From Cyanidioschyzon merolae (taxonomy: Eukaryota): 64,000 nt of DNA. Position numbers and translations under genes: made by a program. Each line of letters opens with the position of its first letter. The first letter of the stretch is position 1. The DNA lies in NCBI GenBank assembly GCA_000091205.1, contig AP006502.2; one strand, written 5' to 3'. Below, one piece after another: positions 3,867 to 57,157 of this stretch. The notes under the pieces are model-generated. The model had not been told where the DNA came from. It searched no databases and saw nothing but the letters and a program-made list of their open reading frames with translations.

Positions 3867-4119
3867 TTGCTGCAAATCCGTACAGGCCGGAAGCGTACTG
3901 CCGCCGTCGCCTCGACTGCGGCGGCGGCGGAACATCGCAGCCATCCGCTGCTGCTCGTCCACGAACGAACGTGCTGCATTGATCAGGCATCCGTTGACTA
4001 TCGGCGAGTCGAGCGTTGTATCGACGTCGTTGCATTGGGTCTCCTGAGAGGCAAGTCGGCGTGCCACAGCATCCTTGACGCTGTATTTCGAAAGGTTTGC
4101 GTATCGATTCTCAATCATC

Positions 4120-11546: not shown

Positions 11547-11929
11547 TGCACCCAGAGGTTTTGGTTTTCGATGGAGCATCGCAGGACATGGATGATCGTC
11601 TGAATCGAACAGTGCCTTTTGCGCCATCGAGAAGAATCATGGAACGCAGCCCACACGACCTTGATATCATAGAGTTCCCGCGCCCGATCAGTTCTCTGAA
11701 ATTGCCGCTGCCGCCGGGTTATGCGCGCGGCAGCAGTCAGCCGTTTTATTTGGTATACACGAAGGTGGGTCGATCCGGTGAGGCGCGAGCGCTTCCATCC
11801 AGCGTGTAGAGGCCTGGAGCTCGATACATGGATTGGATGTCATATATAGAACTGGGGCAAACCTAGCTGCACCGCTGTCGGAATGAAGCGGAAAAGGCCT
11901 GTACAACAAGTGCGCAAACTAGTGTTCTG

Positions 11930-12985
11930 CACTGTGTTCCAATTATCATTTAAACCAGTCTTTACGGTTTGTGTTCCTTGGCTGGTTCCTTTTACACGCT
12001 CTCATCTCGGGGTTTAAAAATGATGGCATGCCCTTTCACATCAGATTCGTTGTCAATATTCGGAGGATAATGAAGGCAGCACTCAAGTCCCGATTTCCCT
12101 GTTTCCGGCAATTGCAAACGCGTTTCGTGTAAAGGCAAATGTTGCGATCTACGACTCTTTCTCGTATACAGCCTTGGTGCATCCTTTACAGCAGCGACAC
12201 TATGGCATGGTCAGGTGTTCCCGTATGTCCTTCAAACCTATTCCTCCGATCGCCGCCCGGTGGCGCGACAAACGCTTAGTTCGTCGCCCGGTACATGCGC
12301 TTAATGGACACAGCGGCTACCAAGATGCTCTCCTCTGTTTAAGCGCCCAGTGCCGCAGCCCACGATCACGGGCTCTTTCGGGGCCACGCACTCGGCGCGT
12401 ACGCTGTCCGCTACACACGCAAGCACACGTTGCTCCATTCGATAGAGATTTTCTGGAACGCGCTGCTGTCCATCATAGAGCAATGCTCGGAAGCGGAAAT
12501 CCACGCTGCATATCAAGTCGAGAAACGTCGTTCTGTCCAGGCTTGGCTCTGACAGAGCTCTGACGCAGTTGCCACCGAGAGCGATCGCTGCGGTGACGCA
12601 AGCCCCAGTACGAGACACGTTTCCACGCAAACGGAAGAGATGGAAGCCTCTGGCTGCATGCCCGGCAGGATGCATCAAGCTGATGTGGAATGCGGTCTCA
12701 CCGTGGGCCACACTGAGAATAGGATTTGCGTTTCGAACGGCTCGAGTATTTGAAGCGACAGTCTCAGTGACCTTGGGGCATGAGCTTGTGAACCAGTGGT
12801 TCAGAGACGACGTCGGGTATTTCTCCTGCTCAATACGACGCTGGCGATTGCTGGGCGCTCGAGCTGCCTTGAAACCGGAGATCGAAACGTGAAAAAAGCG
12901 TGATTGTAGCATGCTACGCGGGAAGAGAGAAGAAAAGCAGCGGCTTGGACGTGCGCATTGGACAATGATGCCAGATGGCTTAAAA
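11930..12985 (-). repeat. R-unit copy R1 (~1.05-kb dispersed two-ORF unit), inverted relative to R2/R3
   Basis: Reverse complement is near-identical to 27762..28700 and 30467..31330, including the conserved upstream block ccaatgc(a/g)(t/c)acgt(a/c)caa...cgcgtagcatgctacaatcacgc. Confidence 0.8.
12301..12912 (-). CDS. R-unit ORF-A, 203 aa (premature TAA from a C>T change removes the last 21 aa of the 224-aa version)
   Basis: MLQSRFFHVSISGF...TFLDLICSVDFRFRALLYDGQQRVPE...VADSVRAECVAPKEPVIVGCGTGRLNRGEHLGSRCVH*; ATG confirmed at 12912-12910. Confidence 0.5.
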   Translation of the reverse strand: MLQSRFFHVSISGFKAARAPSNRQRRIEQEKYPTSSLNHWFTSSCPKVTETVASNTRAVRNANPILSVAHGETAFHISLMHPAGHAARGFHLFRLRGNVSRTGACVTAAIALGGNCVRALSEPSLDRTTFLDLICSVDFRFRALLYDGQQRVPENLYRMEQRVLACVADSVRAECVAPKEPVIVGCGTGRLNRGEHLGSRCVH

Positions 12986-13245
12986 ACGTTTATATGAACT
13001 CGCCGAGAATCGCCTTGATTCCAGTGACGGGACGCTTTCCAGCTGCAAAGAATCGAAACAGCGACTTTTAAAAGATAACCGATAATTAAAAAGTTCCAAA
13101 CGGATGTGTAAACCCCTCATGTTGGAATTCGAATATCGAAAGTGCATATCTGACATCTCGTTCAGAAAAGCATCGAGAGACACCACCGCCTCTCGAAAGT
13201 CGAACGACGTCGCCGGCAGTGTACAGTAGTGGCAAGTGACCCGCC

Positions 13246-14748
13246 CTAGACGAAACGTCTCCGACTGACGTGCAGACGCCTGCCCGTCTTTTTGGACCGG
13301 CCATCTACTACTGCTTCCATCTTCTTCTCATATAATTCAACTTTGAGAGGTTGTCCAATAAAGTTTTCTCTTGTCAGCTCTGGAGGTCTCTTCTCCAGCA
13401 CCGCACATCTCCTTATATTGATTGCGGCGATAAAATCTCGGTTCACAAACTCCATACGTTTCTTGCCATCATTCCTTGTACTCACCAGTGCAAGCAATCC
13501 TCGAACATTCTCCCTCCTTTCCATTTCCTCTTCCGTCAGCGGCCCGTACTTTTTTATGTTCCCAGGGCTCTATTGGCAATTTTCTATCTCCACTCTCTGA
13601 AGTACGCACCCCAGTTCATGGTGTGTATACGAGGTTCGAAACTCATCAACAGGTATCGTGGCGAAACGCCTTGCGCATTCCCTGTACGTTCTTGTCGTTG
13701 GAGTTGGCGTACAACCTTTTTTAGGCGCCAAGCACCCTGCCCCGTACGCTACTACGAGCCTTTGAGTCTTGTCCTCTTTGACGGCACTCAACTAATTGAA
13801 AAAGTTGGCAAACGCCCGCTGCCTCCCACCGTATAGATTCATTCGCAAACGAGCCCACCAGGGCTTGGTATACTCCTCCCACAGCGCATCCCAATGGGCA
13901 ACACGAACTTGCATGAATTTCAGAAAAGCTTCAAAGTCCGCTCCGCGGCTCGTCACCTCGCTCAAAGCTTCCAGGTGATCCTTCATTCCTGCATTCCGTA
14001 TCTCAATTTTCTTCCTCGCATTCGTTATACCCGATTCTCGATAATATATCGCTCTCGAGAGCCTCATCAGACGCATGTCTTTCTGACGTAAGTTGCCGTC
14101 AGCACCATCTTCCGCACGCTTCGGTGCTGCGATGGTTATGATATTCGTATTCCCGGGGCCCGCGCCAACGACAAGGTCGTTATCCTGCACTTTCTGTGTA
14201 TCAGGGCCCGCCTTCTTGTTTTCTTCATGCTTCGCCGCGCCAACCATAAAGGCGTTATCCTGCACCTCCTGCATCACAGGATCCGCTTCCTTCCCATCTT
14301 CATCCTTCGTCACGTCAACGACAAGGTCGTTATCCGGCATCATCTGCGTCGCATGATCCTCCTCTTTGTTTTCTTCATGCTTCGCCGCGTCAACGACAAG
14401 GTCGTCATCCTGCACTTCCAGTGTGGCAGGTTCGGCGTCCTTCTCATCTTCATGCTTCGCCGAGGGCGGGACCAAACGATCTGCCTTCAATCGCCGATTG
14501 TGTGCACACAAGTCTACTCCATCGGTTTCGATCATCCCAGTGAATACATTTTGTTTGCTCTTTTTGAGACGTTTGAAATCGAAGATATTCTTCCAGTGCG
14601 TCTCCCGGTTTTCGCCAGTGAAGTCCTCCCTGCGAACATTGAACTCCGGACAGATCTCCCTCATGATGCCATGAGGGACGCCAGAGTCGATAGTCACAAA
14701 ATGTGACTTGGTGTTGCATAATGGAACAACGTCGAAGCGCTTCCCCAT
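13246..14748 (-). pseudogene. TnpB/Fanzor-like RuvC-family nuclease ORF, single frame interrupted by two in-frame TAG stops (at 13792-13794 and 13570-13572)
   Basis: Three listed ORFs (13792..14748, 13570..13791, 13246..13524) are in one frame. C-terminus KKRMEFVNRDFIAAINIRRCAVL matches the RuvC-III motif (N-R/A-D-x-NAAxNI) of TnpB/Cas12/Fanzor; upstream IPVDEFRTSYTHHELGC resembles the pre-zinc-finger TS motif; FVTIDSG is a candidate RuvC-I. Confidence 0.6.
14160..14440. repeat. about 4.5 tandem copies of a ~63-bp (21-codon) acidic repeat inside the TnpB-like ORF
   Basis: Peptide repeats [83 protein letters not shown]. Confidence 0.6.
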
Positions 14749-14840
14749 TAGGAGAGCCTTCCGTCTCTCCCATTCTTCATTTTTTCCTCACTCAGCTTTA
14801 TTTCCGCCTTGCGTTCGAGCTCTCGGTCCAGAAACGCGAA

Positions 14841-15383
14841 CTAACATAGGATGAGGCGATAGTATCTTTCCTTACCTTTTTTCAACTTTGATATCTTGTC
14901 TGTTGGATTCACCAGCCCCATGACTGCACGGTCTTCTTGTATAAGCGCACGGATTACAGAAGCTTCATTCGTGCTCTCTTTTGACGCCTTCTTGTCGACA
15001 AATTCGACCTCATCTTCATGCTTGCGATCGTTCGTGATGCCATTGATAATCGCCCATTTTCCTTTGCAAGAGATGCCCGAGTAGAGTGCAAACACGGCGC
15101 GTATCATGAAACGTTCGAGGTTCATTGTCAAATAGTTCTTCAGATTCGTGAGGTACTTCATCGCCCCATAGTCGTAAATATCCCGGTCACACTTGTATCG
15201 AGTACCGTTGAAGCTGTAAAAGGGATGTTTTTCGTGCAAGGCATGCACTAGCACATTTTCCCCCTGCGCTTCCGCTGTACCAAGTATCAGGTGAGGAATA
15301 AAGGTCTTATCGAAAAACACGTCCGGAATCTCGACCGTTTCCATGTACGTCACGTCTTTGTAGATCTCCCTCGCCAAATGCAT
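14841..15383 (-). CDS. hypothetical 180-aa ORF directly upstream of the TnpB-like ORF; possibly its frameshifted N-terminal (WED/REC-like) region
   Basis: ATG at 15383; ends 93 nt before the ATG of the 13792..14748 ORF in a different frame; no recognisable motifs. Confidence 0.3.
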   Translation of the reverse strand: MHLAREIYKDVTYMETVEIPDVFFDKTFIPHLILGTAEAQGENVLVHALHEKHPFYSFNGTRYKCDRDIYDYGAMKYLTNLKNYLTMNLERFMIRAVFALYSGISCKGKWAIINGITNDRKHEDEVEFVDKKASKESTNEASVIRALIQEDRAVMGLVNPTDKISKLKKGKERYYRLILC

Positions 15384-17253
15384 CAGTCCCGACGACGCCT
15401 TGACGATACTCTTAGAGTACGAGTCGACACGTTATTTTTATAGCATCTCGCAACTTTTCCCTGTAGGGATCCTTGATATGTTCAAGAAAACAGGTCTTCA
15501 CCACCATCTCGTCGTAGAGTTGTCTTCCCCGCGCAGCCTTCGACTTAGGGCATCCCCCTTTCGGTTCTTCTCCTCTTCCATTTCTTCTGGACTCGGCACT
15601 GTTCTTTGTTTATTTTTATGGCAGCTGGAGACCCTGAGCCTCCAAGATCGTGGACTTGCTTTTTCATAACTTTCCTTTTTTTAGTTTTTTTTTGAAAAAG
15701 AACACTCTTTGAACGCTTCTGTTATATTCTGCGAATAAACACTCGAGTGTTTTTACTTGAGGTTTGAAACACGACTGAGATGAAACAATATATTTTGTTA
15801 CGATTCCAATGCAAATACAAGTCTTACGTTAGAACAAAACGCTACTGATTACGATCGCGTTTCCCTTCAACGGCGACATGCGCGTCGCGTCAGTTGACTG
15901 CCTGATCTCCTTGGTGCGCTCACCGAGCGGGATGCAAACTAGTCACAAACTTTTTATCAAAGATCAACTATCTTAAAAGCCCCACACACCACGCCCGCCT
16001 AAGTGGTCCAATTTTTCCGGAGAAGCTCTGAAAGTGGGTTAACACGAATGTTTGGGCGACGAGGAAGGAAGCCCACTCCAGGGACCTTGACCGCAACGAA
16101 CGGAGGGGCAGAGGCAGTAGCAGAGAATGATGACGAGAATTCGAAGTAGTTATCCGCTGCTCTCGAAACAAGGCTGCAGGTTCGGGCGCAAATCCTGGAT
16201 CCATCCTTGAATTCGGGCTCAGTTTTATGGTCTATCTTGGTTTCTACCTCAACTTTGGAAACAATCTCGGCGGATACTTTGGAAGACGGCTGACAGCATG
16301 TTCGCCGTCGAAGCTGACATAAGCGACTTGCCCGCCTATGTGTTTGGGGAGCGGATACGAAACCGCTGAAAGGGTGGTTTGTAGACTGTTCCCAATGGTT
16401 TAGGGTGGCTTCACGCGTCCGGCAAGATAAAGGTCGCATTTGAATCGACCTTGACTAATGTACTTTTGATTCTATGCTAGCGCTGCGGCAGATACGCAAT
16501 GAACGACTGGAATGCAGGAGGCAATGGTGGCTTGTGCGCTCACATACCCCGTGGAGGGTGCATCTAAATCGACCTTCTAGTCGGAAGGTCCAGCGAATCG
16601 GATACGCACACTGGCACATTGCGCTTTCTGCGCTTACCCACTGTGGTGGGTGTCAAGCACAAACCCGCATTGCCAACCGACAACAACGCATTCCATGCAT
16701 GATCACGAAGGAGAGAGGCGGCTCCCAGAATGTATCCTAACAGCCAAGTTTCTCCAGCGTGTCGTGCAGCGAAGGCAAGCTTGCATCCGCAGACTGTCCA
16801 AGCACAAACTGACGACGAGATCCGATTCTACGTCGGGTGAAGCACACCTCGAGCCGACGCCCTCTGTGGTATAGAAAAGCTGTTCCAGCTCCATGAACTA
16901 TCTGCTCCAGCATTTAAGGTGCAAAGGCGGACACGGAAAGGCAGGTAGTAGGCACACAAAATATGACGTGTGAAACGACCAGAATATCCGAGAATAAAGT
17001 CTGGGTAATGGAGCTTGGAGGCAGGGCGTTTGATGGATACTTTACAGTGCACTGAAAAAACACAAGAAAAGTAAGAAGAAAAATGTACATAATCGGAGAA
17101 CGCTGGCCTAAGTAAACGTTTTGTCGATGAAAAAAATACGATACAACGCCAACTGGGCATACGGTTGTATCTCGGGGACGGAGACTTTCGGCGCAGATTC
17201 CCTTGCGAAAAAGCACCGCTCTCCGTACTTTTCCGGAAACTCTGGTTGGACAG

Positions 17254-22199: not shown

Positions 22200-22650
22200 C
22201 AATAAAAAATCCAAGGGAAAGGTATGGACATGCAATTCGAGGATCCTGGAGGCTCGGTGTCGCCGAGTACCGGAGAAGAAACGGAAAAAACGTCTTCTCG
22301 CTGATCATCGAGCGAAGAAGAGCAAGCGAAGAAGAAACGGGAGATAGGCGAGAAAAAATGCGTTTGCCCGACTGAACGATAATGAGACGCTAGTGGCACT
22401 GGGGACATGAGTCCGAGCAATACTTGCAATGGTGCGTTCCACCAGAGGCAACAAACGCATGGAATTCGTGAACCGAGACTTGAATGCCGCCATCCATATC
22501 AGACGAGGAGTGGTGCTGAAGACGAGACTCGCACAGCTGATGTAATCCAGCTCTGGGGCGCAGCTTCTCAGGCTCGAAGTGTGCCCGGATCAATCGAATC
22601 CGATCGCAGGCGACCAGTCAGAAAAGGCTGGGAGTCGTTTGTAAGTGGAA
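22200..22650 (+). mobile_element. 5'-truncated TnpB/Fanzor-like copy (C-terminal RuvC-III region only), decayed
   Basis: Frame-2 translation ...AMVRSTRGNKRMEFVNRDLNAAIHIRRGVVLKTRLAQLM*; nucleotide homology to 46720..47185 begins at aaaatccaagggaa(a/g)ggtatgga. Confidence 0.55.
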
Positions 22651-25699: not shown

Positions 25700-26640
25700 G
25701 AGGGTCAATATATGAACATTCACAGGCGCTTCCCAGCCTTTTTCACGGTTGGCCTGCTATCGGTTTCAATTTCTCACTGCGCACTTGGAGCTTGTGAGGC
25801 TGTACCACGAAGTTAGATCGCGTCGACTCCTCGAGTCTCGTCTTCAGCACCCTACATCTCCTGATTTTGATGGAAATGTTGAAGTCTCGGTTTTCGAACT
25901 CCAAGCTTGTCTTGCCGCTGGTTCTACTTGCCAATGCATGGTGTCCTCGAATACGTGCCCTCGGTGCCATTTGCTGTTCTGTCAGCTCTCCGTGCTTTTC
26001 TATCGTCGAAGCGCTCCGCTGCCTTCTCTTCTATCCCAAACCTCTGAAGTGTAAACCACAGCTCATCCCGTATTTGTTTCTAAAATGAACCCACTTCCTA
26101 GTGCCCTTTGGTGTGGACCTTCCCTGAGGGGGACACGCTTGCGGCACAAAGGCGGAATAGACACCGTCCTGGTCGCGTGCCGAAAGCTTCTGTGAGTCGC
26201 CCAGTGGCGCGATCATTACGTTTCAGGATACAGAACGCTCCTTCGGTGACGTTGAACCACGGAGAGTATGGAGCAATGGAAAGCAACTCTACCTCCCAAT
26301 AGCATCGGCAAAAGCTTGCACGCAATAAAAATGGTGAAATGGCGCGTTGTCGTCTGGAAAGACGTCTCCAGACGTGGGGAGAAGGGTCTTCAATGATTCG
26401 GCAAAGTGGGTGTTGTTGTATGAGCCTTCCCTACGAGCGAAACTGAGGCCGTCAAATATATCCACTGCAGCTGGAGCCGATGATGATGCCTTAGCTCTTT
26501 TCGAGTTCGATCGTACATACAACGGACCCCCTGCTCCGCGAGTACCCATATACGCCCCGACCGTATCGCTCGGACGAAGTCTCACTGACTGGCAAAACAA
26601 ACTGACGTCACTTTGCTTCATATCGATCGTGACATTCCAG
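25700..26640 (-). mobile_element. 5'-truncated TnpB/Fanzor-like copy, decayed (frameshifts between three ORF pieces)
   Basis: ORFs 26289..26621 (..VGAYMGTRGAGGPLY..), 26098..26325 (..SPWFNVTEGAF..) and 25743..25970 (..SLEFENRDFNISIKIRRCRVLKTRLEESTRSNF..) are collinear with the 46240..47185 copy. Confidence 0.55.
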
Positions 26641-27827
26641 GAATTCTCCAGTCGTAATTTCGGTGGAAGATAGCCGTGATTGAACTAGGACGCTTTTGTG
26701 CCAGGCTCCTAGAGTTTACAGGTCCACACGGACAAGCGGTTGAATAACAGAGACGCCCATGATGGCTTCTATACTCGCTTCAGCTTTCCATAAGCTCATC
26801 AACGGTTCGTTTTCTATCATTGACCTCAATCGCGCTTTGAGAATATCGGTTTCTGGCGCGGAACGCATAGCCTTCTTCTTGTCGGTGTTCCTCGAGTATC
26901 TGATTACTATGGTATGACGGACCTGAAGCAGGAATGCAGTCCTCCTTCCATTGTCCAGTAAAGAGCAAATATCCAATAGGCAAGTGCTCTACGATCTATA
27001 CGATATACTGCTTTGTGATTTCGATCTCCTGCTGGAGACTGCGAAAAAGCATGTGATGCCATGCAGCGGGGCGACGGAACAGAGTTGAGTTGGAAGACTA
27101 TTCGATGGACGGGCGTTCAATCTCCAAAGGCTTTTTGCTGCATATCCCAGCAGCTAGCTCATAGACTTGGATCTGTATCGAAGTTTTGGAGGGTTTCACG
27201 GAGAACGCTTGAACGCTGCAGGCACAGAGCGGGCATAGAACTCCACGAGAGAGACTATCGAGACGAGGTGTGATAAATCGCGTAGCGCCGCTCTTCCACA
27301 ACATCGGCAATATCATTTTGCAACACAGCGAACGGCAATTGAGGCAGTTTTTTGTGTCAGTCGTGTATCTTCCATGTAAAGCCTTTGCAGGATATCGGTT
27401 TGCCATGAGTCGCTAGCACGGGGCGTTGTCCACGACGGCCGAGCTTGACTTGAGGCGCGCCGGCTCTCGTTTGCTGGCCCTTGATTAATACTGAAGCGCG
27501 GTCAACTCGCAATCATCGTGCAAGCATAAAATCCACCCGTGAATTGATAGCGCTGTTCCTGAATTGAGATATTTTCCGAACGTTTCATAAAATGGACAGC
27601 GACGAATTCATGTTGCATCAATATGGGCTTACGGGTGAAAAAGATTTTTTAGGATTCTTTCTCGTCTCTTTGAGATATGGCGCCTTCGACGCTTTGCGGC
27701 TGGAATTCGTTCGGTCGTCGGAATCTGGATGATTTGCGACCTCATTGAGAGGATTCGTTAAGGAACCAAAATCATCATCCAATGCATACGTACAATCCTC
27801 TACTCTTCCTCTTTCGTACCGCGTAGC

Positions 27828-28502
27828 ATGCTACAATCACGCTTTTTCCACGTTTCGATCTCCGGTTTCAAGGCAGCTCGAGCGCCCAGCAATCGCCAGC
27901 GTCGTATTGAGCAGGAGAAATACCCGACGTCGTCTCTGAACCACTGGTTCACAAGCTCATGCCCCAAGGTCACTGAGACTGTCGCTTCAAATACTCGAGC
28001 CGTTCGAAACGCAAATCCTATTCTCAGTGTGGCCCACGGTGAGACCGCATTCCACATCAGCTTGATGCATCCTGCCGGGCATGCAGCCAGAGGCTTCCAT
28101 CTCTTCCGTTTGCGTGGAAACGTGTCTCGTACTGGGGCTTGCGTCACCGCAGCGATCGCTCTCGGTGGCAACTGCGTCAGAGCTCTGCCAGAGCCAAGCC
28201 TGGACAGAACGACGTTTCTCGACTTGATATGCAGCGTGGATTTCCGCTTCCGAGCATTGCTCTATGATGGACAGCAGCGCGTTCCAGAAACTCTCTATCG
28301 AATGGAGCAACGTGTGCTTGCGTGTGTAGCGGACAGCGTACGCGCCGAGTGCGTGGCCCCGAAAGAGCCCGTGATCGTGGGCTGCGGCACTGGGCGCTTA
28401 AACAGAGGAGAGCATCATGGTAGCCGCTGTGTCCATCAAGCGCATGTACCGGGCGACGAACTAAGCGTTTGTCGCGCCACCGGGCGGCGATCGGAGGAAT
28501 AG
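27828..28502 (+). CDS. R-unit ORF-A, 224 aa, unknown family (conserved C-terminal motif V-I/C-V-G-x-G-T-G-R-x-N-R-G-x-H-x-G-S)
   Basis: ATG verified at 27828. Same frame gives similar proteins in diverged copies D1/D2 with Ser agc/tcg and Arg cga/aga codon-family switches. Confidence 0.6.
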   Translation: MLQSRFFHVSISGFKAARAPSNRQRRIEQEKYPTSSLNHWFTSSCPKVTETVASNTRAVRNANPILSVAHGETAFHISLMHPAGHAARGFHLFRLRGNVSRTGACVTAAIALGGNCVRALPEPSLDRTTFLDLICSVDFRFRALLYDGQQRVPETLYRMEQRVLACVADSVRAECVAPKEPVIVGCGTGRLNRGEHHGSRCVHQAHVPGDELSVCRATGRRSEE

Positions 28503-28565
28503 GTTTGAAGGACATACGGGAACACCTGACCATGCCATAGTGTCGCTGCTGTAAAGGATGCACCA

Positions 28566-28722
28566 AGGCTGTATACGAGAAAGAGTCGTAGATCGCAACT
28601 TTTGCCTTTACACGAAACGCATTTGCAACAGCCGGAAACAGGGAAATCGGGACTTGAGTGCTGCCTTCATCCTCCTCCGAATACTGACAACGGCATTGGA
28701 GGAACTGAGAAGAGTGGCGAAT
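28566..28722 (-). CDS. R-unit ORF-B conserved segment (antisense, in unit tail): ...QFLQCRCQYSEEDEGSTQVPISLFPAVANAFRVKAKVAIYDSFSYTA...; no in-frame ATG upstream (stop at 28723-28725), so start or exon structure unresolved
   Basis: Codon-wise comparison with the D1 segment shows at least 8 third-position synonymous differences (gtc/gta, tcc/tcg, ccg/cca, gca/gct, gcg/gca, gca/gct, atc/att, tct/tcc); homologous peptide also in D2 and R3. Confidence 0.4.
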
Positions 28723-29337
28723 TTACACCCGGAGATAAACGAGAGGAAAAGGAAGCAGCCGCAGAACAACCCGCAAAGTGTGATGTAATTGATAATGGGA
28801 AGAGGCCCAAACCTTAGATTGTGTATCAGTGTTTGTGGTCCGGTTACTTTTCTTTCTGACATGAGCGTACACGGCCGGTCCGATGCGAGTATTCGATGCC
28901 TTCCAACGATCGAGTACAGCGATGTTGCGTTTCGGGATTCCAGCTGGGTAGCGCCGACGGCATGGCACTTCCGCATCGATGCACCATCTCGTGAAGCATC
29001 AAAGAACAGATGCCTCCTTGTTCGGACAGATCTCATCACTTATTCGTTCGCTTTGACGAACACCCTCAAGGAATATGGCGGATGCCCGTCACATGCCAAC
29101 AGCTCTTGGCAGACAACAAGTCGTAGATCACGGCGGAAGTGCAGAGCATCGGAATACCACGAGCAACGCCAGTTGCTATGGTACATTGCGGACTCGCACC
29201 TCCGCTACGACGTTGCCCTATGTGCGCCAATGCCGCTGATTCGCCTCGAGCACTGCTGATATGGAAGCCTGCTACATTGCTCAGCGAGTTACGCGACAAA
29301 ATCATATCGAAACACAAAGCGGAGCCAGAGGCGACGA

Positions 29338-30123: not shown

Positions 30124-30466
30124 TGGACTCTGATGACCTCGCGGTGCAACGGAGTTGTGTATAATGGTTTAAACAACTTGGTGCTAAAGACCAAGGTGAA
30201 TGGCTGAGCGCAATAGCCGGTGTCCTTCTAGGACCGTGCCGGATGAAAATGGAATAGTGAACTGCTGGTTCTAATCATGCATTTCAATTTTTCCGAAATT
30301 TTTAGATGTACAGCCTGGGCATTCAAAGTTCAGCAATGAGTGCTTGAGGATTCATACGTCGATTTAGGTTTCTCGGTCGACTTCTTCAGGTGGCTGCTCT
30401 GATTCTTTGCCGCTGCGCTCTGTTGCGGCACTGCAGTCAAGATGATTCGATCCGCGCTTTAGAGGA

Positions 30467-31545
30467 AGGGTTCGTTAAATAACTGAAATCATCATCCAAT
30501 GCATACGTACAATCCTCTACTCTTCCTCTTTCGTACCGCGTAGCATGCTACAATCACGCTTTTTTCACGTTTCGATCTCCGGTTTCAAGGCAGCTCGAGC
30601 GCCCAGCAATCGCCAGCGTCGTATTGAGCAGGAGAAATACCCGACGTCGTCTCTGAACCACTGGTTCACAAGCTCATGCCCCAAGGTCACTGAGACTGTC
30701 GCTTCAAATACTCGAGCCGTTCGAAACGCAAATCCTATTCTCAGTGTGGCCCACGGTGAGACCGCATTCCACATCAGCTTGATGCATCCTGCCGGGCATG
30801 CAGCCAGAGGCTTCCATCTCTTCCGTTTGCGTGGAAACGTGTCTCGTACTGGGGCTTGCGTCACCGCAGCGATCGCTCTCGGTGGCAACTGCGTCAGAGC
30901 TCTGCCGGAGCCAAGCCTGGACAGAACGACGTTTCTCGACTTGATATGCAGCGTGGATTTCCGCTTCCGAGCATTGCTCCATGATCGACAGCAGCGCGTT
31001 CCAGAGAATCTCTATCGAATGGAGCAACGTGTGCTTGCGTGTGTAGCGGACAGCGTACGCGCCGAGTGCGTGGCCCCGAAAGAGCCCGTGATCGTGGGCT
31101 GCGGCACTGGGCGCTTAAACAGAGGAGAGCATCATGGTAGCCGCTGTGTCCATCAAGCGCATGTACCGGGCGACGAACTAAGCGTTTGTCGCGCCACCGG
31201 GCGGCGATCGGAGGAATAGGTTTGAAGGACATACGGGAACACCTGACCATGCCATAGTGTCGCTGCTGTAAAGGATGCACCAAGGCTGTATACGACACAG
31301 AGTCGTAGATGGCAACTTTTTCCTTTCGATCCTTAGCGTTGGCAAGAACCTGAAGTAGCTGAGTCTGCACTTGAACGCTGCCATCATTATCCTTCGACTG
31401 CTGCCTTCGGAAAATGAGGGAACAGAGAAACCAGCGGATTCAAACTCGGAGGTAAGAAAGAGGAATAGGAAGCAGACGCATAAAAATTCATCAATAGCCG
31501 GTATTTATGATAGTGGGAAGAGAGCCAAACTTTAGCATCTACCCG
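30467..31545 (+). repeat. R-unit copy R3
   Basis: Same orientation as R2, 2.7 kb downstream; the two copies bracket the PMM gene. Confidence 0.85.
30545..31219 (+). CDS. R-unit ORF-A, 224 aa (differs from the R2 copy by Y>H, G>R, T>N and two synonymous changes)
   Basis: ATG verified at 30545; MLQSRFFHV...EHHGSRCVHQAHVPGDELSVCRATGRRSEE*. Confidence 0.6.
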   Translation: MLQSRFFHVSISGFKAARAPSNRQRRIEQEKYPTSSLNHWFTSSCPKVTETVASNTRAVRNANPILSVAHGETAFHISLMHPAGHAARGFHLFRLRGNVSRTGACVTAAIALGGNCVRALPEPSLDRTTFLDLICSVDFRFRALLHDRQQRVPENLYRMEQRVLACVADSVRAECVAPKEPVIVGCGTGRLNRGEHHGSRCVHQAHVPGDELSVCRATGRRSEE

Positions 31546-31698
31546 GGAGTTAGGTAAGTCGATCCGTTCTATTCTATTCTGGCACGAGTGTCGATCTGGC
31601 TTAGCTGTGCGCAGAGCCGCTGGCAACGCCTGTGCGGACACGGCTGCTTTGCGCGACGGTCTACAGGGCAGGTGCTTGGCTTCGCGTTGCGTTCAACA

Positions 31699-34503: not shown

Positions 34504-35312
34504 TGCGCCGCCAACAGTGATACGGACGCCTCAACCCGACGCCCTCAGTGGCATGGCAAAACCGTTCTGTCTCCGTGCAGTACCTGCTTCAGCGGGATAA
34601 GCGCTACGGCGAGAGCTCAAAACAGCTACTCGGCACACGATAGAACATACGAAACGACCAGTATACCCGAGAGGAAGTATGGGTTATAGAACTTGAAGGT
34701 AGGCGCTTCATCATTAACGCTTTCCCGAAATCCAGTATCCGTTCCGAATTCTGGAATCCAAGGTCAATCTAAACATTTTGTCATCTGAAAAACTTCAGTT
34801 ATGCGGAACGCTCCGCGTATTGGACGCCCTGCTCGCAAGCATCTCCAGTGGAGCTCTGGCCGCCTTGTCTGCCGCTAGCATCTTTTGTGCTACTGGGGGA
34901 TCACTGCTCCGACACAATGATAAGGTGGCATGGAAAATGGCCTAGTTCATTCAGTAACCCGCTTACGAGCGAGCAAGATTTGCGCTGATTGGCTAGTGCA
35001 CCCAGATGCACGCAACCGACGGCATGGAATTGGGTCAAGTCTGTTCAAGAATTCGTTCACGAACGAGTAACATTTTTGCTGTCGGGGTATCGTGCCTGAG
35101 TGCACGCATCCTGCACCATGAACGTGAGATCAGGTGAATGGAACAGCCCTGAACGTGTCGTATTCTTTAGTGTCATTTGCAGTGAAGGAAACGGCGCTGG
35201 AACAAAGCAAAAATGACGCCAAAGCGGGGCATCGCCGTCGGATCGGTTGCGCACACTAGACATCGCTGCGTCCGGGTTTGCTGGACTCGTAAGCGACCGA
35301 TTACTTCAGTTT

Positions 35313-36794: not shown

Positions 36795-38342
36795 ACGGGG
36801 ACTTTGTATGGCTGCGTCCTGGTGGGCATCGGTAGAAAGCTGACGAGAGTTACCTATGATTCTTAACGTAGAAGGCGAACATGGTGACGGAATCCGCTAT
36901 GAAGGTAGCGGGCGTCTTGACTTTTGCAGCCGCAGTTGCGTGCATTCATTATTAGCGAATGAGGTTGGCATCCTATCGAGCGTGCAATATCGCTCTCATG
37001 CAGCATATTTGGTGAAACATTTCCAAACAAATGTTTTAGTTTGTTCGACAGTTCAGCTACCTGCAGCATCTCCCGGTCACAGGTATCACTCTTCTTCAGA
37101 TGGACCTGCGGGTTCAAGCTCTGAAATAATTCCTATATGCATTGGATGGATGCGCGCTTTGGAAAAAAATGCAACAAGCGATTGCCTGTCCCATGACGAT
37201 GCAGGAAAGACCACTCGTGGCTAATAGGGCACCGGTTCCGTCTCATACCAGGAACGAGCGAAGGCATAACGCTTCGGGAGAGGTTTCTCTGCGCTCGAGC
37301 CGCTTTTCCAAAGCGCACGCCTAACCGACAAATGAGGAAAACGTGCTTTTTTAGATCATTACGGCTTGCGATTTTCAGACGGGATTCTGTCAGGTCTCAA
37401 GCATGCAGTCTCCGAGCGTGCCAGCGTCTGCTGTATACAAGTTGCCCGATGAGAAGCCTATGAACCGAGGAAGACGAATCTCCCCGCCCTGCATTTTTTG
37501 ACCATCACCATCTCTCGTGATTGATCGTAAAGTCCGTCGAAAAAGCTTGAAAGCATGATGTCGCAGTCGACCGAAGCGTGCTGTTCCGTCAGACGGTATG
37601 GTCCCTGTCACGCAAACTGCTTCTCCACGTGAGCTCTGTTGCACTTCGTTTACCGTTGAATGCTCCACGACCGTCAACATTCATATTCGGCAGTGCGCAA
37701 GCTAAACAGCTCGCCAAACAGAGGGGCTATGAGTCCGCCACTCTTTCCTCGCCATGTTCTATAAGTGGGGAACAGCGAGCGGACGTGTGCCAGCGTGCGT
37801 GATATCTCGAGGGGTTCAACACTTAGAAGTGTATGCAGCAATAAGATTCCACGCGTTCGAAGTACAGCTGTACCGGGCGCTGAGGAAAATGTGCCCAGAC
37901 CCTAGCGCCTTCGTAAACGACCATCGCCAGAACTTTTTCAAAACATCGGATATCGGAACAAGTGGTTCGAGGGAAAGAGGTCGACAATGAAGTTTGCTTC
38001 ATGTAGACCGGATCATGGCTCCACCATAGTTCCGTCAGATGAAACACGAACACGGATCCTTTCAATATGTTCCTGCTTTTCGACTGTGCCCCTGTTTTTT
38101 GGTAGATGAAAGGCCTCAACATTCGAAGTCCAATCATCGCGGCTCACGGATTCATTCGTTGTTTTAGGATTCTCGATCTTCTTCTCGAATAGCTTCCTCT
38201 GTCTCCATGTTGTTGGGTTTGTAAAGTTACGAGTAGCAATATGACTCGCACCGCCATCGACCAAAGGGTTCGTGAAGCTACTGACGTCATTATCCGATGT
38301 ATGCGTACAATACTTTGTTCTTCCCTGTTCCTTACGTGTGGC

Positions 38343-39057
38343 ATGCTCAAATCACGCATGCTTCAAGTTTTGGTCTTCCTGTTTCGAGGCAACTCGTGGG
38401 CGCAACAATTCGAGCAGAGAGATTGGTAATGAGCGAAATACGAAATCGGTTCTGAACGACTTGGTCACAATCCCACGCAAAAAGTTCACTGAACTCCCCA
38501 AGACAACCATTCGGTTCCATGCGAGAAGCAAACCCCCGGCTCTTTGCGGCAATAAACGGAACGGCATTGCGCAACACCATTGCCCATGCCCTGTGATAGA
38601 CTACCAGAAGCACCCGCCCATTCTGTTCAGACAAAAATGGGTTTCGTACTTGGAATGCAGTTATGGTTCACATGGCTTCCAGTGGAGCGTTTGTCAAAGA
38701 TTTCCACGACGGAAGTATAGGGCGCATCGCATTTCTCGACTTGATTTCCAGCCTTTCTTTTCCCCATGGTACTTGGATCATCATGGACGAGCTCGCTTCC
38801 CAGAAATCCTCCTTCGGGCCGCAAAGCTAACACTGGCGCGTCCAGCGGACAGCTTCCTCACCGAGAAGATCCCCCAGAGGAACACGGTGTGCGTAAGGCA
38901 TGGTACCGGGCGCGGAAACCGAGGAGGGCATGGCAACGTGCCTTCTGCACCCGATAGAAGCACGTACCGAGTTACGAAGCACGCGTTTGTCGTGAAACAG
39001 GACAGCTCTCGGAGAAGGGTGTGTGTTGGACATATAGGAACAAACGACTACAGCTAA
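38343..39057 (+). pseudogene. R-unit ORF-A homolog; conserved ATG (MLKSRML...) is followed by a stop after 28 codons and the remaining 261-codon frame (38272..39057) has no ATG
   Basis: N-terminus MLKSRMLQVLVFLFRGNSWAQQFEQRDW* aligns with R2 MLQSRFFHVSISGFKAARAPSNRQRRIEQEKY; downstream frame ...ARPADSFLTEKIPQRNTVCVRHGTGRGNRGGHGN aligns with R2 ...VADSVRAECVAPKEPVIVGCGTGRLNRGEHHGS. Confidence 0.5.
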
Positions 39058-39262
39058 ACTTCACTTGTAAAAACCTCGCACCTCGGCTGTACACAAACGA
39101 GACGATGAAAACGACAAGGGATGCATGAATCGCTTCTTTAGCCTGTGGATGCATTGCGCAAGCAATAGCTGGAAACAGCGAAATCAATACTTGAACGCTG
39201 CGATCAATATCCTCCGATGACCTACAAGAGAGCAGGACGAAAAGAGAGTCCAGCGTTTCCAA
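38972..39262 (-). CDS. R-unit ORF-B homolog segment (..LSCRSSEDIDRSVQVLISLFPAIACAMHPQAKEAIHAS..); listed start is TTG, no ATG
   Basis: Protein-level and synonymous-site conservation with the R2 and D2 ORF-B segments. Confidence 0.4.
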   Translation of the reverse strand: METLDSLFVLLSCRSSEDIDRSVQVLISLFPAIACAMHPQAKEAIHASLVVFIVSFVYSRGARFLQVKFSCSRLFLYVQHTPFSESCPVSRQTRAS

Positions 39263-39638
39263 AGCCAGCGTTTATCTACAGCAAGCGGAAAGCGTCGAAG
39301 AGAACTTCCGCACAGTCTGGTGTTGGTGCCACGATGAAGAGACCCAAAGTTGGTGAGTACGCCAATTTCCCTTTCTGGACACTTTCAATTTTCTTCTGAA
39401 ATGGGTGTATCAGCGTATTCTTAACTGCAATATCTAGTTTGATTCTAACGCACGATCGATGCATCCCATCAGAGAGACGCTCATGCAGCGAATCCAGGAA
39501 GCGGAGAAGACGCTCTACGAAGCGCGTCGTCGCCCAGAATACGTCGCTGCGGCGGCATCGACCGGGGCGAAGCGCGCCTCTACGCTCAAAAAGCGACGTT
39601 TGTCTCCTGGTACGAACTAGACCTTTTCATCAGGTGCA

Positions 39639-41363: not shown

Positions 41364-43344
41364 AGCCCGTGCGGCCCCAGACCGAATGTTGTTTTTGTAC
41401 TGAGTTTTGAAATGCCACGGTAGCTTTTTCCGATCTCAGTGACGAACATAGAATGATCGTGTAAGCTACAGCGCGTGAAGGGAGCACCAGATTCTGAAAT
41501 GCACCGCATGAATGCCGCGTCGGACACTAAGTACTTGACCTCGACATCAGTTGTCGAAGCTGTCGCTTTTCCGACCAACCGTTCTTTCCCAGAGGAGCAT
41601 TTCTCGTAATATGATGCGAGCCAGGTAAGAGAAATATATATAGCATATATGCGTGTGATTTCGATTCGAAAAGCATGCCGTAAAAACCAACTCTCCTTTA
41701 TGGGCATGATCACTGCATCAATGCACGAATTCCAAATCCGGATATCCTGGTGCCGGAGACATCCGTACCATCCAAAGCATTGGGATCTGAGCGTCTTTTC
41801 ATTCGTGGTCACAAAGATGGGTCCTCACTCGACTAGGTATGCGCCCAGAGCGCTTTTGTTTATGCGCTTCCAACGATTCCGGTGGTTCCATTCATGTACG
41901 GCAAGCCGGACGTCTTGAACGACTAGCCTAGACGACGAAGAACCCCGTCTGTCAACGCCGATCCGGAGACTGCTGGGTAGCTCCGCAAGCTTTTGCAGAA
42001 TTAGAACGCCGGAAAGCGCTGTTCGGTTGTTTCGGTCACCGAACCTGGATTGGCGGCTATCCAACCTATCAACTACAAATCACGTCCGAAGCTTTCTCTC
42101 TGCGACCTCGTCCAAAAGGTCCGCTAGGCGGGCTGCGACGGAAACCGTGACGGCCAACGAGTTGTGTTTCATGTGAGACCCAGTTCGTTCGATGTAGCTG
42201 GGTACCGTCAGCGTGCAGTCCTGTGCTTCACTAGAGAGCCTCGGTAAAAGCCCCGGCATCGAGACAATCTTGTGTTCTCTTCCGTTGCCGTGGCGCCGAC
42301 GTTTCGTCGAGACGTGCCCCTCGCCTGAACTCCCGTCTGTGAGCAAGTTGTGTAGTGAAGATTGCTGGAGGGAGGACGCCTAAGCGCCGCTACCGGCAGC
42401 GACTGGTGACGTGTGACCCAAAAGACGCGCAAACAGACATTCTCCGTAAACCTGCGAGAAAGGTGTACCACACTTCTTACATTGCTGCTAGTAAGCATGT
42501 AGCTGCTTACATCGTAGGGGTGCTCGCGTCCCTGTCTGCCCGTTGCGAATCAACGACAACTGGACGATGCCGCTGGTATCGTACGTTGACTATGTTGCTG
42601 AACGAGCGTCGTTCGAATTTCAGATCAGAGGGAGCTGCAATGTCGTTATGAAGCGCATTCCCCAAATCCAGTGTCTTCATGGTACCGGTACGTCTGCCGA
42701 TAGAGAGTGCAGCAGTGCTGAAAGAGCCTGATTGTATGTGCGTCCTTTCGGCGCTACGCGTTTGTCAAGGCGGACTCTGGTTCATCAGCAGAGAAGACTT
42801 GAAGATCCGAAGAGCGTCATCGTGCCCAGCATGCATTGTCTGCTCGCATTCCACATGGTCGCTGCTGAATATGTCCACCATCCCGATGCCGCTGAACGCA
42901 CTGAGCAAATCTTTTGGGTCGAGCATCATTCCCGCAGACCAGTCTGGACTGTGGGTAATGGAGCATAGGGTCAGAAACAGACCAGCGGTTGCTTGCCTGG
43001 ATGCCGGTATCCATCGCGCAACCCGGAACCGTGTCCCATGAAAATGGACCAAATATCCTCTCGCTCTGTTCCTGCCTTTCGAGTTTTCTGCTGAACATCT
43101 CTTGAGAAAGACATCCACGATATTCAAAGTGCAGCAATCGCGGCTTACGAATTTATATGCACTTTAAATATTCTCCGACGCCTTTTCTAAGTAACTGCTT
43201 CGACTCGTTGCTGCTGGAGTTCGTAATCTCACCGGAATCGCCACGATTCACATCGCCATCGGCCGAACGTTTCGTTCCATAACCCTTCTCATCGAAGAGT
43301 TCGTACGCACAAGTCTCCAATCCTCTCCTTTCCTCGCACACGGC

Positions 43345-43998
43345 ATGCTTACGTTACACACTCTTCAGGTTTCCGATCAAGAATTTTCAAGGCAATTCAT
43401 GGGCAGAACAAATCGCGCTGCTGGGTTGGTGAATAAGGATACTCGATGTTGTAATTTGACGACTCGCTCACAAGCTCATGTCGAAAGCGCACAGAGCTTG
43501 TCGGGTCAAGTAATCTATTCCATTCGAAAAACGAATCTTCTCCTCTCCTTAAGCATCCATACAGCTGCATTCTACACCAGCGTGGTCTCCCGCACGAGAT
43601 ATGCTCCCTGAGGCTCTCGTTTCTTTGTGTTGGATGGAAAGCGGGGCCTTCAGCTCGGAATTGCGTCGTTGAACTTATCGCTTCCAGTAAGGTGTATAAC
43701 ACCTTTTCGCACGGAGGAACCGTAGACGAATCGACGTTTCTCGATCTGATCTGCAGCCTGGATTTTGCCTCCGGCACTCGTCTCATCATGGACAACACCG
43801 TGTCCCAGAAACCGTCTATCGAAAGGAAGACTGCTTGTCCGAGGGTGCAGCGGACAGCGCACTCGCCGAGCAAAACGCCCAGAACAATGCAGTGATCGTT
43901 GGGTACTTTATGGGCCGCGCGAACGGGGAAGGGCATTTAGGCTCGCCTTCCGTACTCCTTAGGCGCATGGAACGAGCGATGAGGCATGTGTTCACGTG
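43345..43998 (+). pseudogene. R-unit ORF-A homolog with at least two frameshifts (pieces 43345..43611, 43692..43895, and a +1 frame to 43998)
   Basis: MLTLHTLQVSDQEFSRQFMGRTNRAAG...NLLLSLSIHTAAF aligns with the R2 N-terminus; ESTFLDLICSLDF and (shifted) AADSALAEQNAQNNAVIVGYFMGRANGEGHLGS align with the R2 body. Confidence 0.5.
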
Positions 43999-44087
43999 AA
44001 ACAGGGCGGGCCTCGGAGCAGGTGGAGGTGTGGCGGACGCATGCGAATACCCGATGACAGCCAAATTCCACAGCTGCGATGTGCGCA

Positions 44088-44285
44088 TCACGGCTGCACA
44101 CAAACGAGTTCGTAGATCACAATTTCCGCCCTTGCACCAAAAGCATCGACTGTAACCGCAAGTAACGAAAAAGGGAGTTTATCGCTACCATCAAAATCCT
44201 TCGTCAGGTGAATAGGGAGCTGAAGCGAAAGGGGAGACAGACGTATTTGAAACCTTCCATAAAAGCTAGAAAATAGAGTAGTCAC
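44088..44285 (-). CDS. R-unit ORF-B homolog segment (..TKDFDGSDKLPFSLLAVTVDAFGARAEIVIYELVCVQP*); listed start is GTG, no ATG
   Basis: Aligns with R2 SEEDEGSTQVPISLFPAVANAFRVKAKVAIYDSFSYTA and D1 SSEDIDRSVQVLISLFPAIACA..AKEAIHAS. Confidence 0.4.
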   Translation of the reverse strand: MTTLFSSFYGRFQIRLSPLSLQLPIHLTKDFDGSDKLPFSLLAVTVDAFGARAEIVIYELVCVQP

Positions 44286-44942
44286 AGAAAAAGCCTGCAG
44301 ATGCTGACTTGTGCGGAATCACGGGAAGCGTTCCAAACGTTTCAGTGTGTATGCCCGAGTTAGCTTTGCGCAGTCGTTCCACTGAATACGAATATGGGTA
44401 CATGCGTTCCCAACTCAATGCAGCAATCCTGTACAAAGAAAAGATCCCATCGAGCCGATGCCCTCTGTGGAATGGCAAAGCTGTTCTGTTTTTGTGCTGC
44501 ACCCGCTCCAGCTGTTTAGGCGCTGTTGCGGATGCTCTCGGCAGGCGCTAGGCACACGATAGAACGAATGAAACGACCAGTATTTCCGAGAAGAAGTATG
44601 GGTCATGTAACTTGGAAGCAGCATATGGATCGATGGATGCCTCGCCGCGCACCGAAACAAAAAACCAAAAAAAAGAAAGGAAAAGAAGAGTCGCTCATTC
44701 GGAGAACGCTGGAATATGGAAACGCCGTGTCAATTAAAAAAATAGAACAAAATTACCACACCGTGTCCAGGATCGCGAAGCGCAGGCCGACGTCCGTCGA
44801 ACGCGGCGCCTACGTGCCACGCGTATTTCGCATGGAAACTGTTGTTGTAGCGTCGCACCCCGAAGCTCACGAGAGCGTGCTTTCTTAACTTGGCCCTAGC
44901 ACGTGAGCTGAAGCATACTCCCCCAACGGCCAGACAAGTTTT

Positions 44943-45284: not shown

Positions 45285-46239
45285 GGAAAATGTTTCACGA
45301 AGGTCTCCAAAACGACCATCAAGTGAAATACACGTGGCGGTGGGGTTACTCCACACAGCTTCCGTACCAGCGTGAGCAGCGGTGTCTGGGCTCTTGGCTG
45401 CTTGCATCAGTGCGCTCGCAGAATACTGATCTTCGGGGAGCGCGAAGCTCCAGGGCAGAACGCGACCTGTGCGCTTCACGGTGGAAGCGGTTTGCCTCTA
45501 TGGTTTGGAAGAAAATAGGTTCGATTGAACCCAATGGTCATGTCCTGCGGAGCGAGCAGGACCAATCGAGGACAGAGAATGTTGCGACGCAGGTAGTGCT
45601 GGATGCGTGGCAAAACATTCAGAGGCAACGGTGGCAATATACCGCCTGCGCTACTGATATGCGTGTAAAAGGTAAGATGAATGGACTGGACAAAAGAAAT
45701 CGCAGCCTCGCCCAGACCTTAGGATAATTGCCGTATTCAATGCTGTGACACCCCCGATGCGTGCCATCGAATGCTTTTTTGTCAGTGTAGAGCAGGAGAT
45801 GGAAATCAAGATGCAATACACCGTAGAGATCGTAGGCGATTTCCCTGCAGGATAGATATTCTTAACTGAACAGTGCAAGGAGGACTGCATTAATCCGTCA
45901 GGTCAGTCATACCGAAATACACAGATAATCGACGAACGCTGACAGAAACAAATATATGCGCTCCACGCTAATAACAGATATTCTCAAAGCGTGCTTGCGG
46001 TCCTTGGTAGTAAACGGACCATTGATCACCTCACGAAGAGCAATAGCGACGATAGCGGACACATCGGCGTCTCTGTTTCTCAGCAGTTGGATCGTCCGGT
46101 CCCGCAAACAATGGGGTACAGTCGCAAAATTCCTAGTTCAAGCACCGCTATCTTTCACTGAAATCGCAATGGCAGAATTCCTAGAAGCTTGCGATCGGTA
46201 TGAAGCACAGATAAGTCGGTTTGTTTTTTTTTCAGTCGA

Positions 46240-52471: not shown

Positions 52472-52511
52472 GTTTTCTGGCTTGTGGAATCCATTCAACA
52501 AAGACGTTTGG

Positions 52512-57080: not shown

Positions 57081-57157
57081 GATGGGCGCGGTGTTCAGGA
57101 CGGGAAACGAATACTGCGCCAAAAGCGCCATGCTGCAAACCGACGGGGGTCGGTGTA

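Follow-up and report, generated by a model that had tools for sequence, protein, structure and literature searches.

The R element in a C. merolae window

We analyzed a 64,000-nucleotide (nt) stretch of the genome of the red alga Cyanidioschyzon merolae (GenBank contig AP006502.2; hereafter the window, whose numbering is used throughout), which we take to be part of chromosome 20 of strain 10D. The subject is a dispersed repeat, the R element, whose reference copy R2 lies at positions 27517-28869. The window is gene-dense and nearly without introns, and housekeeping genes are found throughout, including those for argininosuccinate synthase, a photolyase/hydrolase fusion, ZPR1, phosphomannomutase (PMM), 2 CCT subunits, and kinases. 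Two of the encoded proteins are identical to C. merolae 10D entries, namely CCT-theta (BAM83283.1) and CMT323C (BAM83287.1).

BLASTN, a repeat finder, and a search with the family consensus together placed 6 copies of the R element in the window, each about 1.37 kb long. The consensus search recovered all 6 as full-length matches, each 71-76% identical to the consensus, while pairwise identity between family copies is about 60%. A first-pass annotation, made from the sequence alone, had listed 5 copies of a unit of about 1.05 kb. The repeat itself is real: the 3 near-identical copies (R1, R2, and R3) were found by BLASTN and the repeat finder where they had been placed, and the diverged copies at about 38.2-39.3 kb and 43.3-44.3 kb are present as well. 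The count, however, rises to 6 with the addition of D0, and the unit is longer than had been proposed. The near-identical parts as first located were 11937-13057 (- strand) for R1, 27685/27750-28817 (+ strand) for R2, and 30467-31535 (+ strand) for R3, and the products of the open reading frame (ORF) that they share, ORF-A, are 98-100% identical. The copies are as follows:

27517-28869, + strand: R2, full-length copy, 76% identical to the consensus over consensus positions 11-1362 (match 27528-28869)
30236-31591, + strand: R3, full-length copy; putatively converted tract 30467-31295
11870-13176, - strand: R1, lacking the first ~48 nt, including the left terminal inverted repeat; putatively converted tract ~12048-12921
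5982-7323, + strand: D0, old copy without homogenization, absent from the first-pass list
38034-39410, + strand: D1, old copy without homogenization, with a 261-codon open frame that is not collinear with ORF-A
43031-44409, + strand: D2, old copy without homogenization, found as a consensus match

At its truncated 5' end, R1 directly adjoins the 3' end of a copy of CMe-1A, a published repeat of C. merolae to which we return below.

With sensitive scoring, every pair of copies aligned over one common span of about 1.35 kb and never past it. Three loci from elsewhere (L027, L028, and L030), each situated between housekeeping genes, aligned with the window copies over this same span. Column-wise conservation among 7 independent copies climbs from a background of about 0.4 to about 0.7 at R2 27517-27530, and drops after position ~28866. 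As the homology between copies ends at the ends of the element, these alignments argue against segmental duplication.

A majority consensus of the family, 1,373 nt in length, was built from the 7 independent copies. It starts with CGTGTCAGATGAAAATGGAAC and ends with GTTCCATTTTATTCTGACATG, which together form a terminal inverted repeat (TIR) of about 19-21 nt. The two ends pair as TGTCAGAWKAAAATGGAAC, with 17 matches out of 19, a score that was reached in 0 of 5000 shuffles. No convincing TIRs were found when single copies were searched one by one, and the repeats are visible in the consensus only. In R2, the corresponding sequences are:

27517-27537, + strand: left TIR of R2, decayed, CGTGCAAGCATAAAATCCACC (consensus CGTGTCAGATGAAAATGGAAC)
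28844-28865, + strand: right TIR of R2, GTTACTTTTCTTTCTGACATG (consensus GTTCCATTTTATTCTGACATG)

The family extends well beyond the window, with dozens more copies in Cyanidioschyzon-type DNA. At the protein level, a word-indexed search with ORF-A returned only its own cluster, which derives from metagenome gene callers, and the family became visible by exhaustive phmmer search. Among 1.84 billion representatives, this search yielded 31 further clusters (at 50% identity) of short, unnamed ORFs at 30-49% identity, all of them from hot-spring metagenomes. One of the 31, P0042, is probably spurious. This 962-amino acid (aa) protein from an ENA metagenome is a tandem-repeat protein in which ORF-A residues 14-43 are matched fourteen times (E 1.6e-13), and the match is apparently a coincidence of repeats or low complexity, without a relation to the R family.

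Transposase and Fanzor1 relics

Three features of R2 concern its coding history:

27828-28502, + strand: ORF-A, an open relic of 224 aa; the IS630/DDE_3 frame covers residues ~26-139 and the Fanzor1 frame residues ~150-200
27903-28371, + strand: relic of an IS630/Tc1-type DDE_3 catalytic domain, in two frames, with the region of the first catalytic aspartate (Asp), a GYAPRGSR-type motif, and the second Asp in 'MDN..H'
28293-28790, + strand: remnant of a Fanzor1/TnpB nuclease, from its C-terminal third, containing the second ORF (28558-28788)

A Pfam scan of ORF-A and 5 other ORFs of the unit gave no match, and the first-pass annotation had found in ORF-A no motif of any known transposase. At the level of the family this is wrong. 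The translated DNA-majority consensus matches the Pfam domain DDE_3 (PF13358) with 46.8 bits (cut-off 28.6) and the NCBIfam IS630 transposase with an E-value of 2.5e-10, and a consensus made at the protein level also matches DDE_3 (39.6 bits). The family alignment carries the pattern IDETAF...GYAPRGSR...VIAAIAS.G...GSVDGSKFLDL, to which some members add ...IMDNIAFHKS...AYSPSLSP. In R2, tblastn placed the family consensus at 27903-28244 in frame 3 and at 28246-28371 in frame 1. The D-D-E/D triad is incomplete: the DDE_3 homology ends after the second Asp (profile positions 3-117 of 146), while in the R copies the first catalytic Asp is mutated, with HGETAF in place of IDETAF, and the frames are broken. 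Lacking a complete triad, R can be no more than a non-autonomous relic.

Downstream of the DDE_3 part, and in another frame, the consensus reads WEHLTTAKCHRC-x17-LCMKC-x9-NRDLNAAINILR. This 3' fragment matches PF07282, the Cas12f1-like TNB zinc ribbon, with 27.4 bits (cut-off 26.3), and its best NCBIfam match is guided_TnpB, at positions 340-388 of 389, the extreme C-terminus of that profile. The consensus sequence TTAKCHRC-x17-CMKC-x9-RDLNAAINI also fits the pattern [TS][TS]-x-x-C4-x(5,50)-RD, in which C4 stands for the zinc finger and which makes up the C-terminal portion of the defining motif of TnpB and Fanzor proteins (PMC3627910). The second ORF of R2 retains a decayed version of the zinc ribbon and RuvC-III motif, with FCLYTKRIC...NRDLSAAF where the consensus has KCHRC..LCMKC..NRDLNAAINIL. 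With family matches to both DDE_3/IS630 and the TnpB/Cas12f TNB zinc ribbon, the novelty that had been claimed for ORF-A falls away.

A search with the consensus in the Fanzor frame uncovered more intact relatives (P0155-P0161). These contain the blocks YRLGQRALARAAD...KKPVIIGYGTGRGNGGGHKGEPSVPVKAMYRAL...WEHLTTKKC...RNRDFNAAINIL, as well as PVIIGYGTGRGNGGGHKGEPSVPVKAMYRAL, and the RuvC-I motif GLDPGR (P0161). The stretch YRMEQRVLACVADS...PVIVGCGTGRLNRGEHHGS of ORF-A aligns to the same relatives, and BLASTP of ORF-A against P0161 gave 46% identity over 28 aa. We dropped the idea that ORF-A simply runs out of frame in its second half, as the alignment to these relatives identifies the frame there as that of Fanzor1. 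The RuvC-I Asp, expected 125-275 residues before the zinc finger, is not present in R, where the IS630 fragment is found instead; R therefore carries a truncated Fanzor1, and not a Fanzor1 gene.

Variation within ORF-A was scored over its 675 nt in 19 copies, of which 3 came from the window and 16 from environmental sequences. The 20 variable sites are distributed 9/5/6 over the three codon positions, and about 14 of them are nonsynonymous and 6 synonymous when read by eye. One allele carries a 1-nt insertion that extends ORF-A from 224 to 237 aa and changes its C-terminus, while a nonsense change in R1 shortens it to 203 aa. The first-pass annotation had called ORF-A a coding gene whose frame D1 and D2 keep with conservative replacements. 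The coding call falls, as codon-position bias is absent and frameshift and nonsense alleles occur. Nor is a retained frame supported: in comparisons of R with D copies, no codon position gathers more mismatches than another, whichever frame is read, tblastx scores similarly in each of the 6 frames, and indels are not multiples of three. The codon-usage log-odds of ORF-A, from a model trained on 16 genes of the window, amounts to 0.005 bits per codon, whereas the range for real genes is 0.04-0.23. An AlphaFold model of the product reached a predicted local distance difference test score (pLDDT) of 32, too poor for a fold search. The product had no match among NCBI-annotated proteins, and it is not annotated in 10D. 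ORF-A is thus a chance-open read-through of transposase and Fanzor1 fragments rather than a functional gene, and the second ORF is not a functional gene either.

The alternative would be that ORF-A is a live orphan gene or a domesticated IS630-Fanzor fusion, of which selection and concerted evolution maintain three copies, and that the D copies are its pseudogenes. The 224-codon frame is open in 2 of the 3 R copies, the homogenized core (27819-28578) nearly coincides with ORF-A (27828-28502), and the codon-usage profile shows a faint preference for frame 0. Moreover, stop-free runs exceed those in dinucleotide shuffles (P 0.005 for R2, <0.001 for D1), and weak selection for an open frame would also give such runs, a point that counts against regarding ORF-A as dead. 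We attribute both the long runs and the faint codon periodicity to relic coding sequence. A live gene is nonetheless very unlikely, given the spread of variable sites over codon positions, with about 14 nonsynonymous to 6 synonymous changes by eye, the natural frameshift alleles, the premature stop in R1, the low pLDDT, and the missing 10D annotation. The product would lack the third DDE residue as well as the RuvC-I Asp, so that neither nuclease could be active. Finally, the cores diverge more between strains than the DNA around them, and not less.

Homogenized cores and swapped flanks

The near-identity of R1, R2, and R3 is limited to part of the element:

27750-28692, + strand: homogenized segment of R2; the part in common with R3 is 27750-28578, and that in common with R1 is 27819-28692

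In the core that R1, R2, and R3 have in common (27819-28578), identity is 99.2%. Along the unit, identity between R2 and R3 runs 60%, 58%, 93%, 99.2%, 68%, 62%, and 57%, while that between R2 and R1 runs 47%, 58%, 61%, 99.3%, 94%, 62%, and 55%. The description of R1-R3 as near-identical is thus accurate for a core of 760-870 nt, but not for the rest: outside the tracts, they are 47-62% alike, and each resembles the other two no more than it resembles D0-D2 or copies on other chromosomes. There they are as diverged as any members of the family. R1-R3 represent three old, independent insertions, whose homology stops at the ends of the element.

Because the tract shared by R2 and R3 has different limits from that shared by R2 and R1, at least two conversion events are required, with R2 taking part in both. 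The pair-specific edges have since diverged by 6-7% (93-94% identity), whereas the common core differs by less than 1%, and its variants are distributed as a mosaic among copies and strains. Such a uniform core with shuffled variants fits continuing exchange. Comparison between strains was made with environmental contigs related to the window; these are all ~99% identical to it and therefore stem from strains of the same species, so that a distant comparison is not possible with them. Between strains, the cores diverge by 1.5-2.3%, compared with 0.05-1.1% (mostly <0.5%) for neighboring genes and spacers, and 0.65-1.2% for the D copies. This excess is predicted by exchange among slightly different paralogues, and not by purifying selection. 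Altogether, a 99% identical core with pair-specific limits indicates ectopic gene conversion with R2 as its hub; the direction of conversion is one that we infer.

R1 has the opposite orientation to R2 and R3, and three environmental contigs carry exchanged flanks. Contig L007 combines the 5' flank of R2 with the 3' flank of R1, and its reciprocal L008, from the same project, combines the 5' flank of R1 with the 3' flank of R2. Contig L006 joins the 5' flank of R3 to the 3' flank of R1, giving the order PMM, R, ZPR1, photolyase gene. Crossing-over within the cores would, by inversion, give rise to just these junctions, which suggests that the R copies may also mediate inversions.

A pattern of highly similar cores could also be expected if a subfamily that is still active had recently undergone a burst and left R1-R3 as young copies, with D0-D2 as older insertions. 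The ~99% identity of the cores agrees with this, and a mixture of young and old copies is the usual age spectrum of transposable elements. The divergence of R1-R3 outside the core (47-62% alike), however, includes the TIR regions that transposition needs, the limits of identity depend on the pair compared, no intact transposase is present, and only three flank types occur across all metagenome data. We therefore consider a recent burst improbable to a high degree, and gene conversion between old insertions the better account.

Conversion between partners that are only ~60% identical is mechanistically hard and inefficient. It may have been homeologous, starting from rare initiating events, or the cores may have evolved together ever since they were inserted. 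In C. merolae, DNA repair and integration proceed mainly by homologous recombination, which would favor such conversion. A further proposal would explain these partners directly: R could be the footprint of a missing red-algal Fanzor1 carrier, an IS630/Tc1-type transposon with TIRs that once bore the nuclease gene, and the homogenization of R1-R3 could have been set off by breaks that a nuclease made, instead of being passive. A Fanzor1 with a guide RNA from an R-type right end would cut sister R copies, and homologous recombination with R2 as template would mend the breaks. C. merolae does still possess CMe-1A copies in which Fanzor1 frames are long, one of these copies directly abutting R1. 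Still, we would call this proposal a long shot.

Less likely again is that the unit is a structured noncoding RNA gene, for example for a Fanzor omega-RNA or a long noncoding RNA, and that its core is conserved for this reason. Conservation does run past the stop codon of ORF-A, and the 3' end of TnpB and Fanzor elements normally encodes the scaffold of the guide RNA. A scan of the window against Rfam gave no match, however, and neither did a tRNA scan; the core folds with ordinary energies on both strands (z -0.9 and -1.05) and is more variable between strains than its surroundings; and the diverged copies show no block pattern beyond that of a decayed coding relic. The worry that the near-identical copies are an artifact of the reference assembly can be dismissed almost entirely, since independent metagenome contigs span R1 (L017-L023), R2 (L010-L015 and L011), and R3 (L001 and L016), each into its own unique flanks.

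Proposed origin and related repeats

Jointly, these results make it likely that R is a dead, non-autonomous deletion derivative of an IS630-Fanzor1 element, and that the cores of R1-R3 were converted at a later time. The first-pass annotation had offered a selfish or mobile cassette or a family under concerted evolution; both appear to apply, the family being a transposon relic of which three copies were homogenized by gene conversion. The parent would have been a Mariner/IS630 element with a transposase gene and, after it, a Fanzor1 gene, and would have lost its middle. The 5' part of R would then derive from an IS630/Tc1-mariner-type DDE_3 gene, through the second catalytic Asp, and the 3' part from the last third of Fanzor1, comprising the 'GYGTG...PVK' block, the TT-x-x-C4 zinc ribbon, and the RuvC-III motif 'RDLNAAINI'. 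This derivative of ~1.37 kb may have been mobilized in trans and have spread to dozens of intergenic sites, and every copy seen is dead by now. Later, the central 760-870 nt of R1-R3, which lie within 20 kb, would have been overwritten by one sequence through ectopic, non-allelic conversion, in two tracts that have different end points and both involve R2. Continued exchange would hold the common core at ~99% identity and shuffle variants between copies and strains. In addition, the identical cores could serve as substrates for crossing-over, and the orientation of R1 relative to R2 and R3 would lead to inversion of the 15-18-kb segments between them.

Mariner-type elements with a transposase gene followed by Fanzor1 between short TIRs have been described, such as PUl-1 of Pythium ultimum, which measures 3,620 bp and has 24-nt TIRs and a TA duplication (Bao & Jurka 2013, PMC3627910). 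R shares with PUl-1 the order and strand of the DDE transposase and Fanzor1 between short TIRs, and both halves show motif-level matches in the same order (LLDNCATHHAS against IMDNIAFHKSS, and NRDVNAARNMLELLK against NRDLNAAINILRLLK). Unlike PUl-1, R measures only 1.37 kb: its transposase is missing the end and its Fanzor1 the first two thirds. Every R copy seen is dead, and no TA duplication could be shown at its decayed ends. No nucleotide similarity between the two was detected. With regard to conversion, R resembles the palindrome arms of the human Y chromosome and the CEACAM paralogues (PMC7042247) in its sharply bounded near-identity within diverged paralogues, its pair-specific tract ends, its mosaic variants, and its inverted copies that are able to invert the DNA between them. 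In contrast to these cases, the substrates in R are dead relics without a sign of selection, and the flanks of the tracts are ~60% identical, which is unusually low.

Several further points weigh against this account. No autonomous parent was found for R, so that its derivation is something we infer. The domain calls depend on consensus sequences that were built in this analysis, and no single copy, ORF-A included, reaches the Pfam threshold by itself. The score for PF07282 barely exceeds its cut-off in Pfam. When the family alignments were run as profiles against solved structures, the matches were chance ones only and included no Fanzor or TnpB, and an AlphaFold2 model of the relative P0155 (pLDDT 57.6) was too poor for use. 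No consistent TA target-site duplication is visible, and individual copies have decayed so far at their ends that the terminal base could not be placed. Contigs L006-L008 come from short-read assemblies across a repeat of ~0.8 kb and could be chimeras. Finally, a second repeat family of the window, T, has a similar layout of DDE_3 followed by a Fanzor 3' end, and the architecture might therefore be older or have another cause.

A different Fanzor1 element is already known from C. merolae. CMe-1A has ~150 copies, measures 3,169 bp, encodes a Fanzor1 of 734 aa, and was reported without TIRs and with its class unknown; TE-N2_CMe, with a length of 635 bp, has ~70 copies (PMC3627910). We equate CMe-1A and TE-N2_CMe with the interspersed element of 253 copies, carrying a truncated WSV486-like ORF, that was described by Nozaki et al. 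in 2007 (PMC1955436). CMe-1A and R are alike in being old, Fanzor1-derived interspersed repeats in the intergenic spaces of one genome. However, BLASTN of the CMe-1A consensus (3,169 bp) against the R consensus gave nothing significant, while finding 13 other places in the window, and tblastx found only a 12-residue RuvC-III motif in common. In addition, R has TIRs and a DDE_3 part, and CMe-1A is reported without TIRs. On this comparison with the published consensus, R is a family distinct from CMe-1A; Repbase may list R under another name. We also considered whether R is part of CMe-1A or of the S and T repeats described below, and rejected this, as order and orientation vary among loci and nucleotide similarity is absent.

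The largest CMe-1A copy of the window lies at 13187-15929 (- strand), continues at 16572-17043, and matches positions 650-3169 of the consensus at 83-87% identity; it is the copy whose 3' end abuts R1. Within it are ORFs at 13792-14748 (318 aa) and 14841-15383 (180 aa) with a gene-like codon usage of 0.22-0.24 bits per codon, from which it follows that long Fanzor1 frames survive in this copy. It also contains 75-nt tandem repeats at 14160-14462. Contig L002 (1-9677) tracks the window from ZPR1 through R1 and departs from it at 13236, 50 nt inside the CMe-1A 3' end, to continue into unrelated genes (eIF2A-like, DNA primase large subunit, and Myb). The break may reflect either a strain rearrangement at the CMe-1A copy or an assembly chimera. 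As it falls within the last 50 nt of an element with ~150 copies, we set L002 aside as uninformative about rearrangement.

Other fragments of the same element are scattered over the window. The 'U' repeats (54036-54681, 63263-63918, 34529-34785, and 44450-44647) correspond to the 5' ~640 nt of CMe-1A and match the 635-bp TE-N2_CMe. The 'S' repeats (25723-26066, 46933-47164, and 22384-22646) are CMe-1A 3' ends with the motif NRDFNAAI(N/H)IRR. The T family, a second and more distant DDE_3 relic, has copies at 26177-27115 (- strand) and 45709-46645 (+ strand), which are 72% alike and give weak DDE_3 matches (E 0.004 and 0.17). At both loci, a CMe-1A 3' fragment adjoins T in one relative arrangement, in parallel to the layout of R. 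The occurrence of such an element in a region full of housekeeping genes, considered unusual at first pass, is hence not exceptional here: the intergenic spaces of the window also hold copies and fragments of CMe-1A and a second DDE_3 family.

C. merolae is cited among the simplest eukaryotic genomes, and 8 class II elements have been counted in it (PMC1955436). Within the window alone there are 6 copies of R, a DDE_3/Fanzor1 relic that is not listed, together with T as a second DDE_3 family and several pieces of CMe-1A. Much of the 'intergenic' space is therefore occupied by the debris of old DNA transposons, and this debris is under-annotated. Furthermore, the R family ties Fanzor1 sequences of C. 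merolae to an IS630/Tc1-type carrier with TIRs, where the published CMe-1A has no class. In an alga that is used for gene targeting by homologous recombination, the homogenized R1-R3 provide a clean, small case of ectopic conversion and possibly of an inversion polymorphism between natural strains. The findings involve no new kind of biology; their value lies in the annotation of the C. merolae genome and in the history of Fanzor carriers.

Three repeats of other types were noted in the window. A direct duplication of 1,517 nt (52509-54025 and 57154-58670) has 99.6% identity between copies 4.6 kb apart; it showed no similarity to R, T, or CMe-1A and no convincing ORF, and a TE-N2-like piece directly follows its first copy. 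At 3230-3909, an 85-nt unit is tandemly repeated in ~8 copies that are 69-92% alike, and the length of this array differs in contig L013. A perfect doublet of 102/103 nt is found at 645-849.

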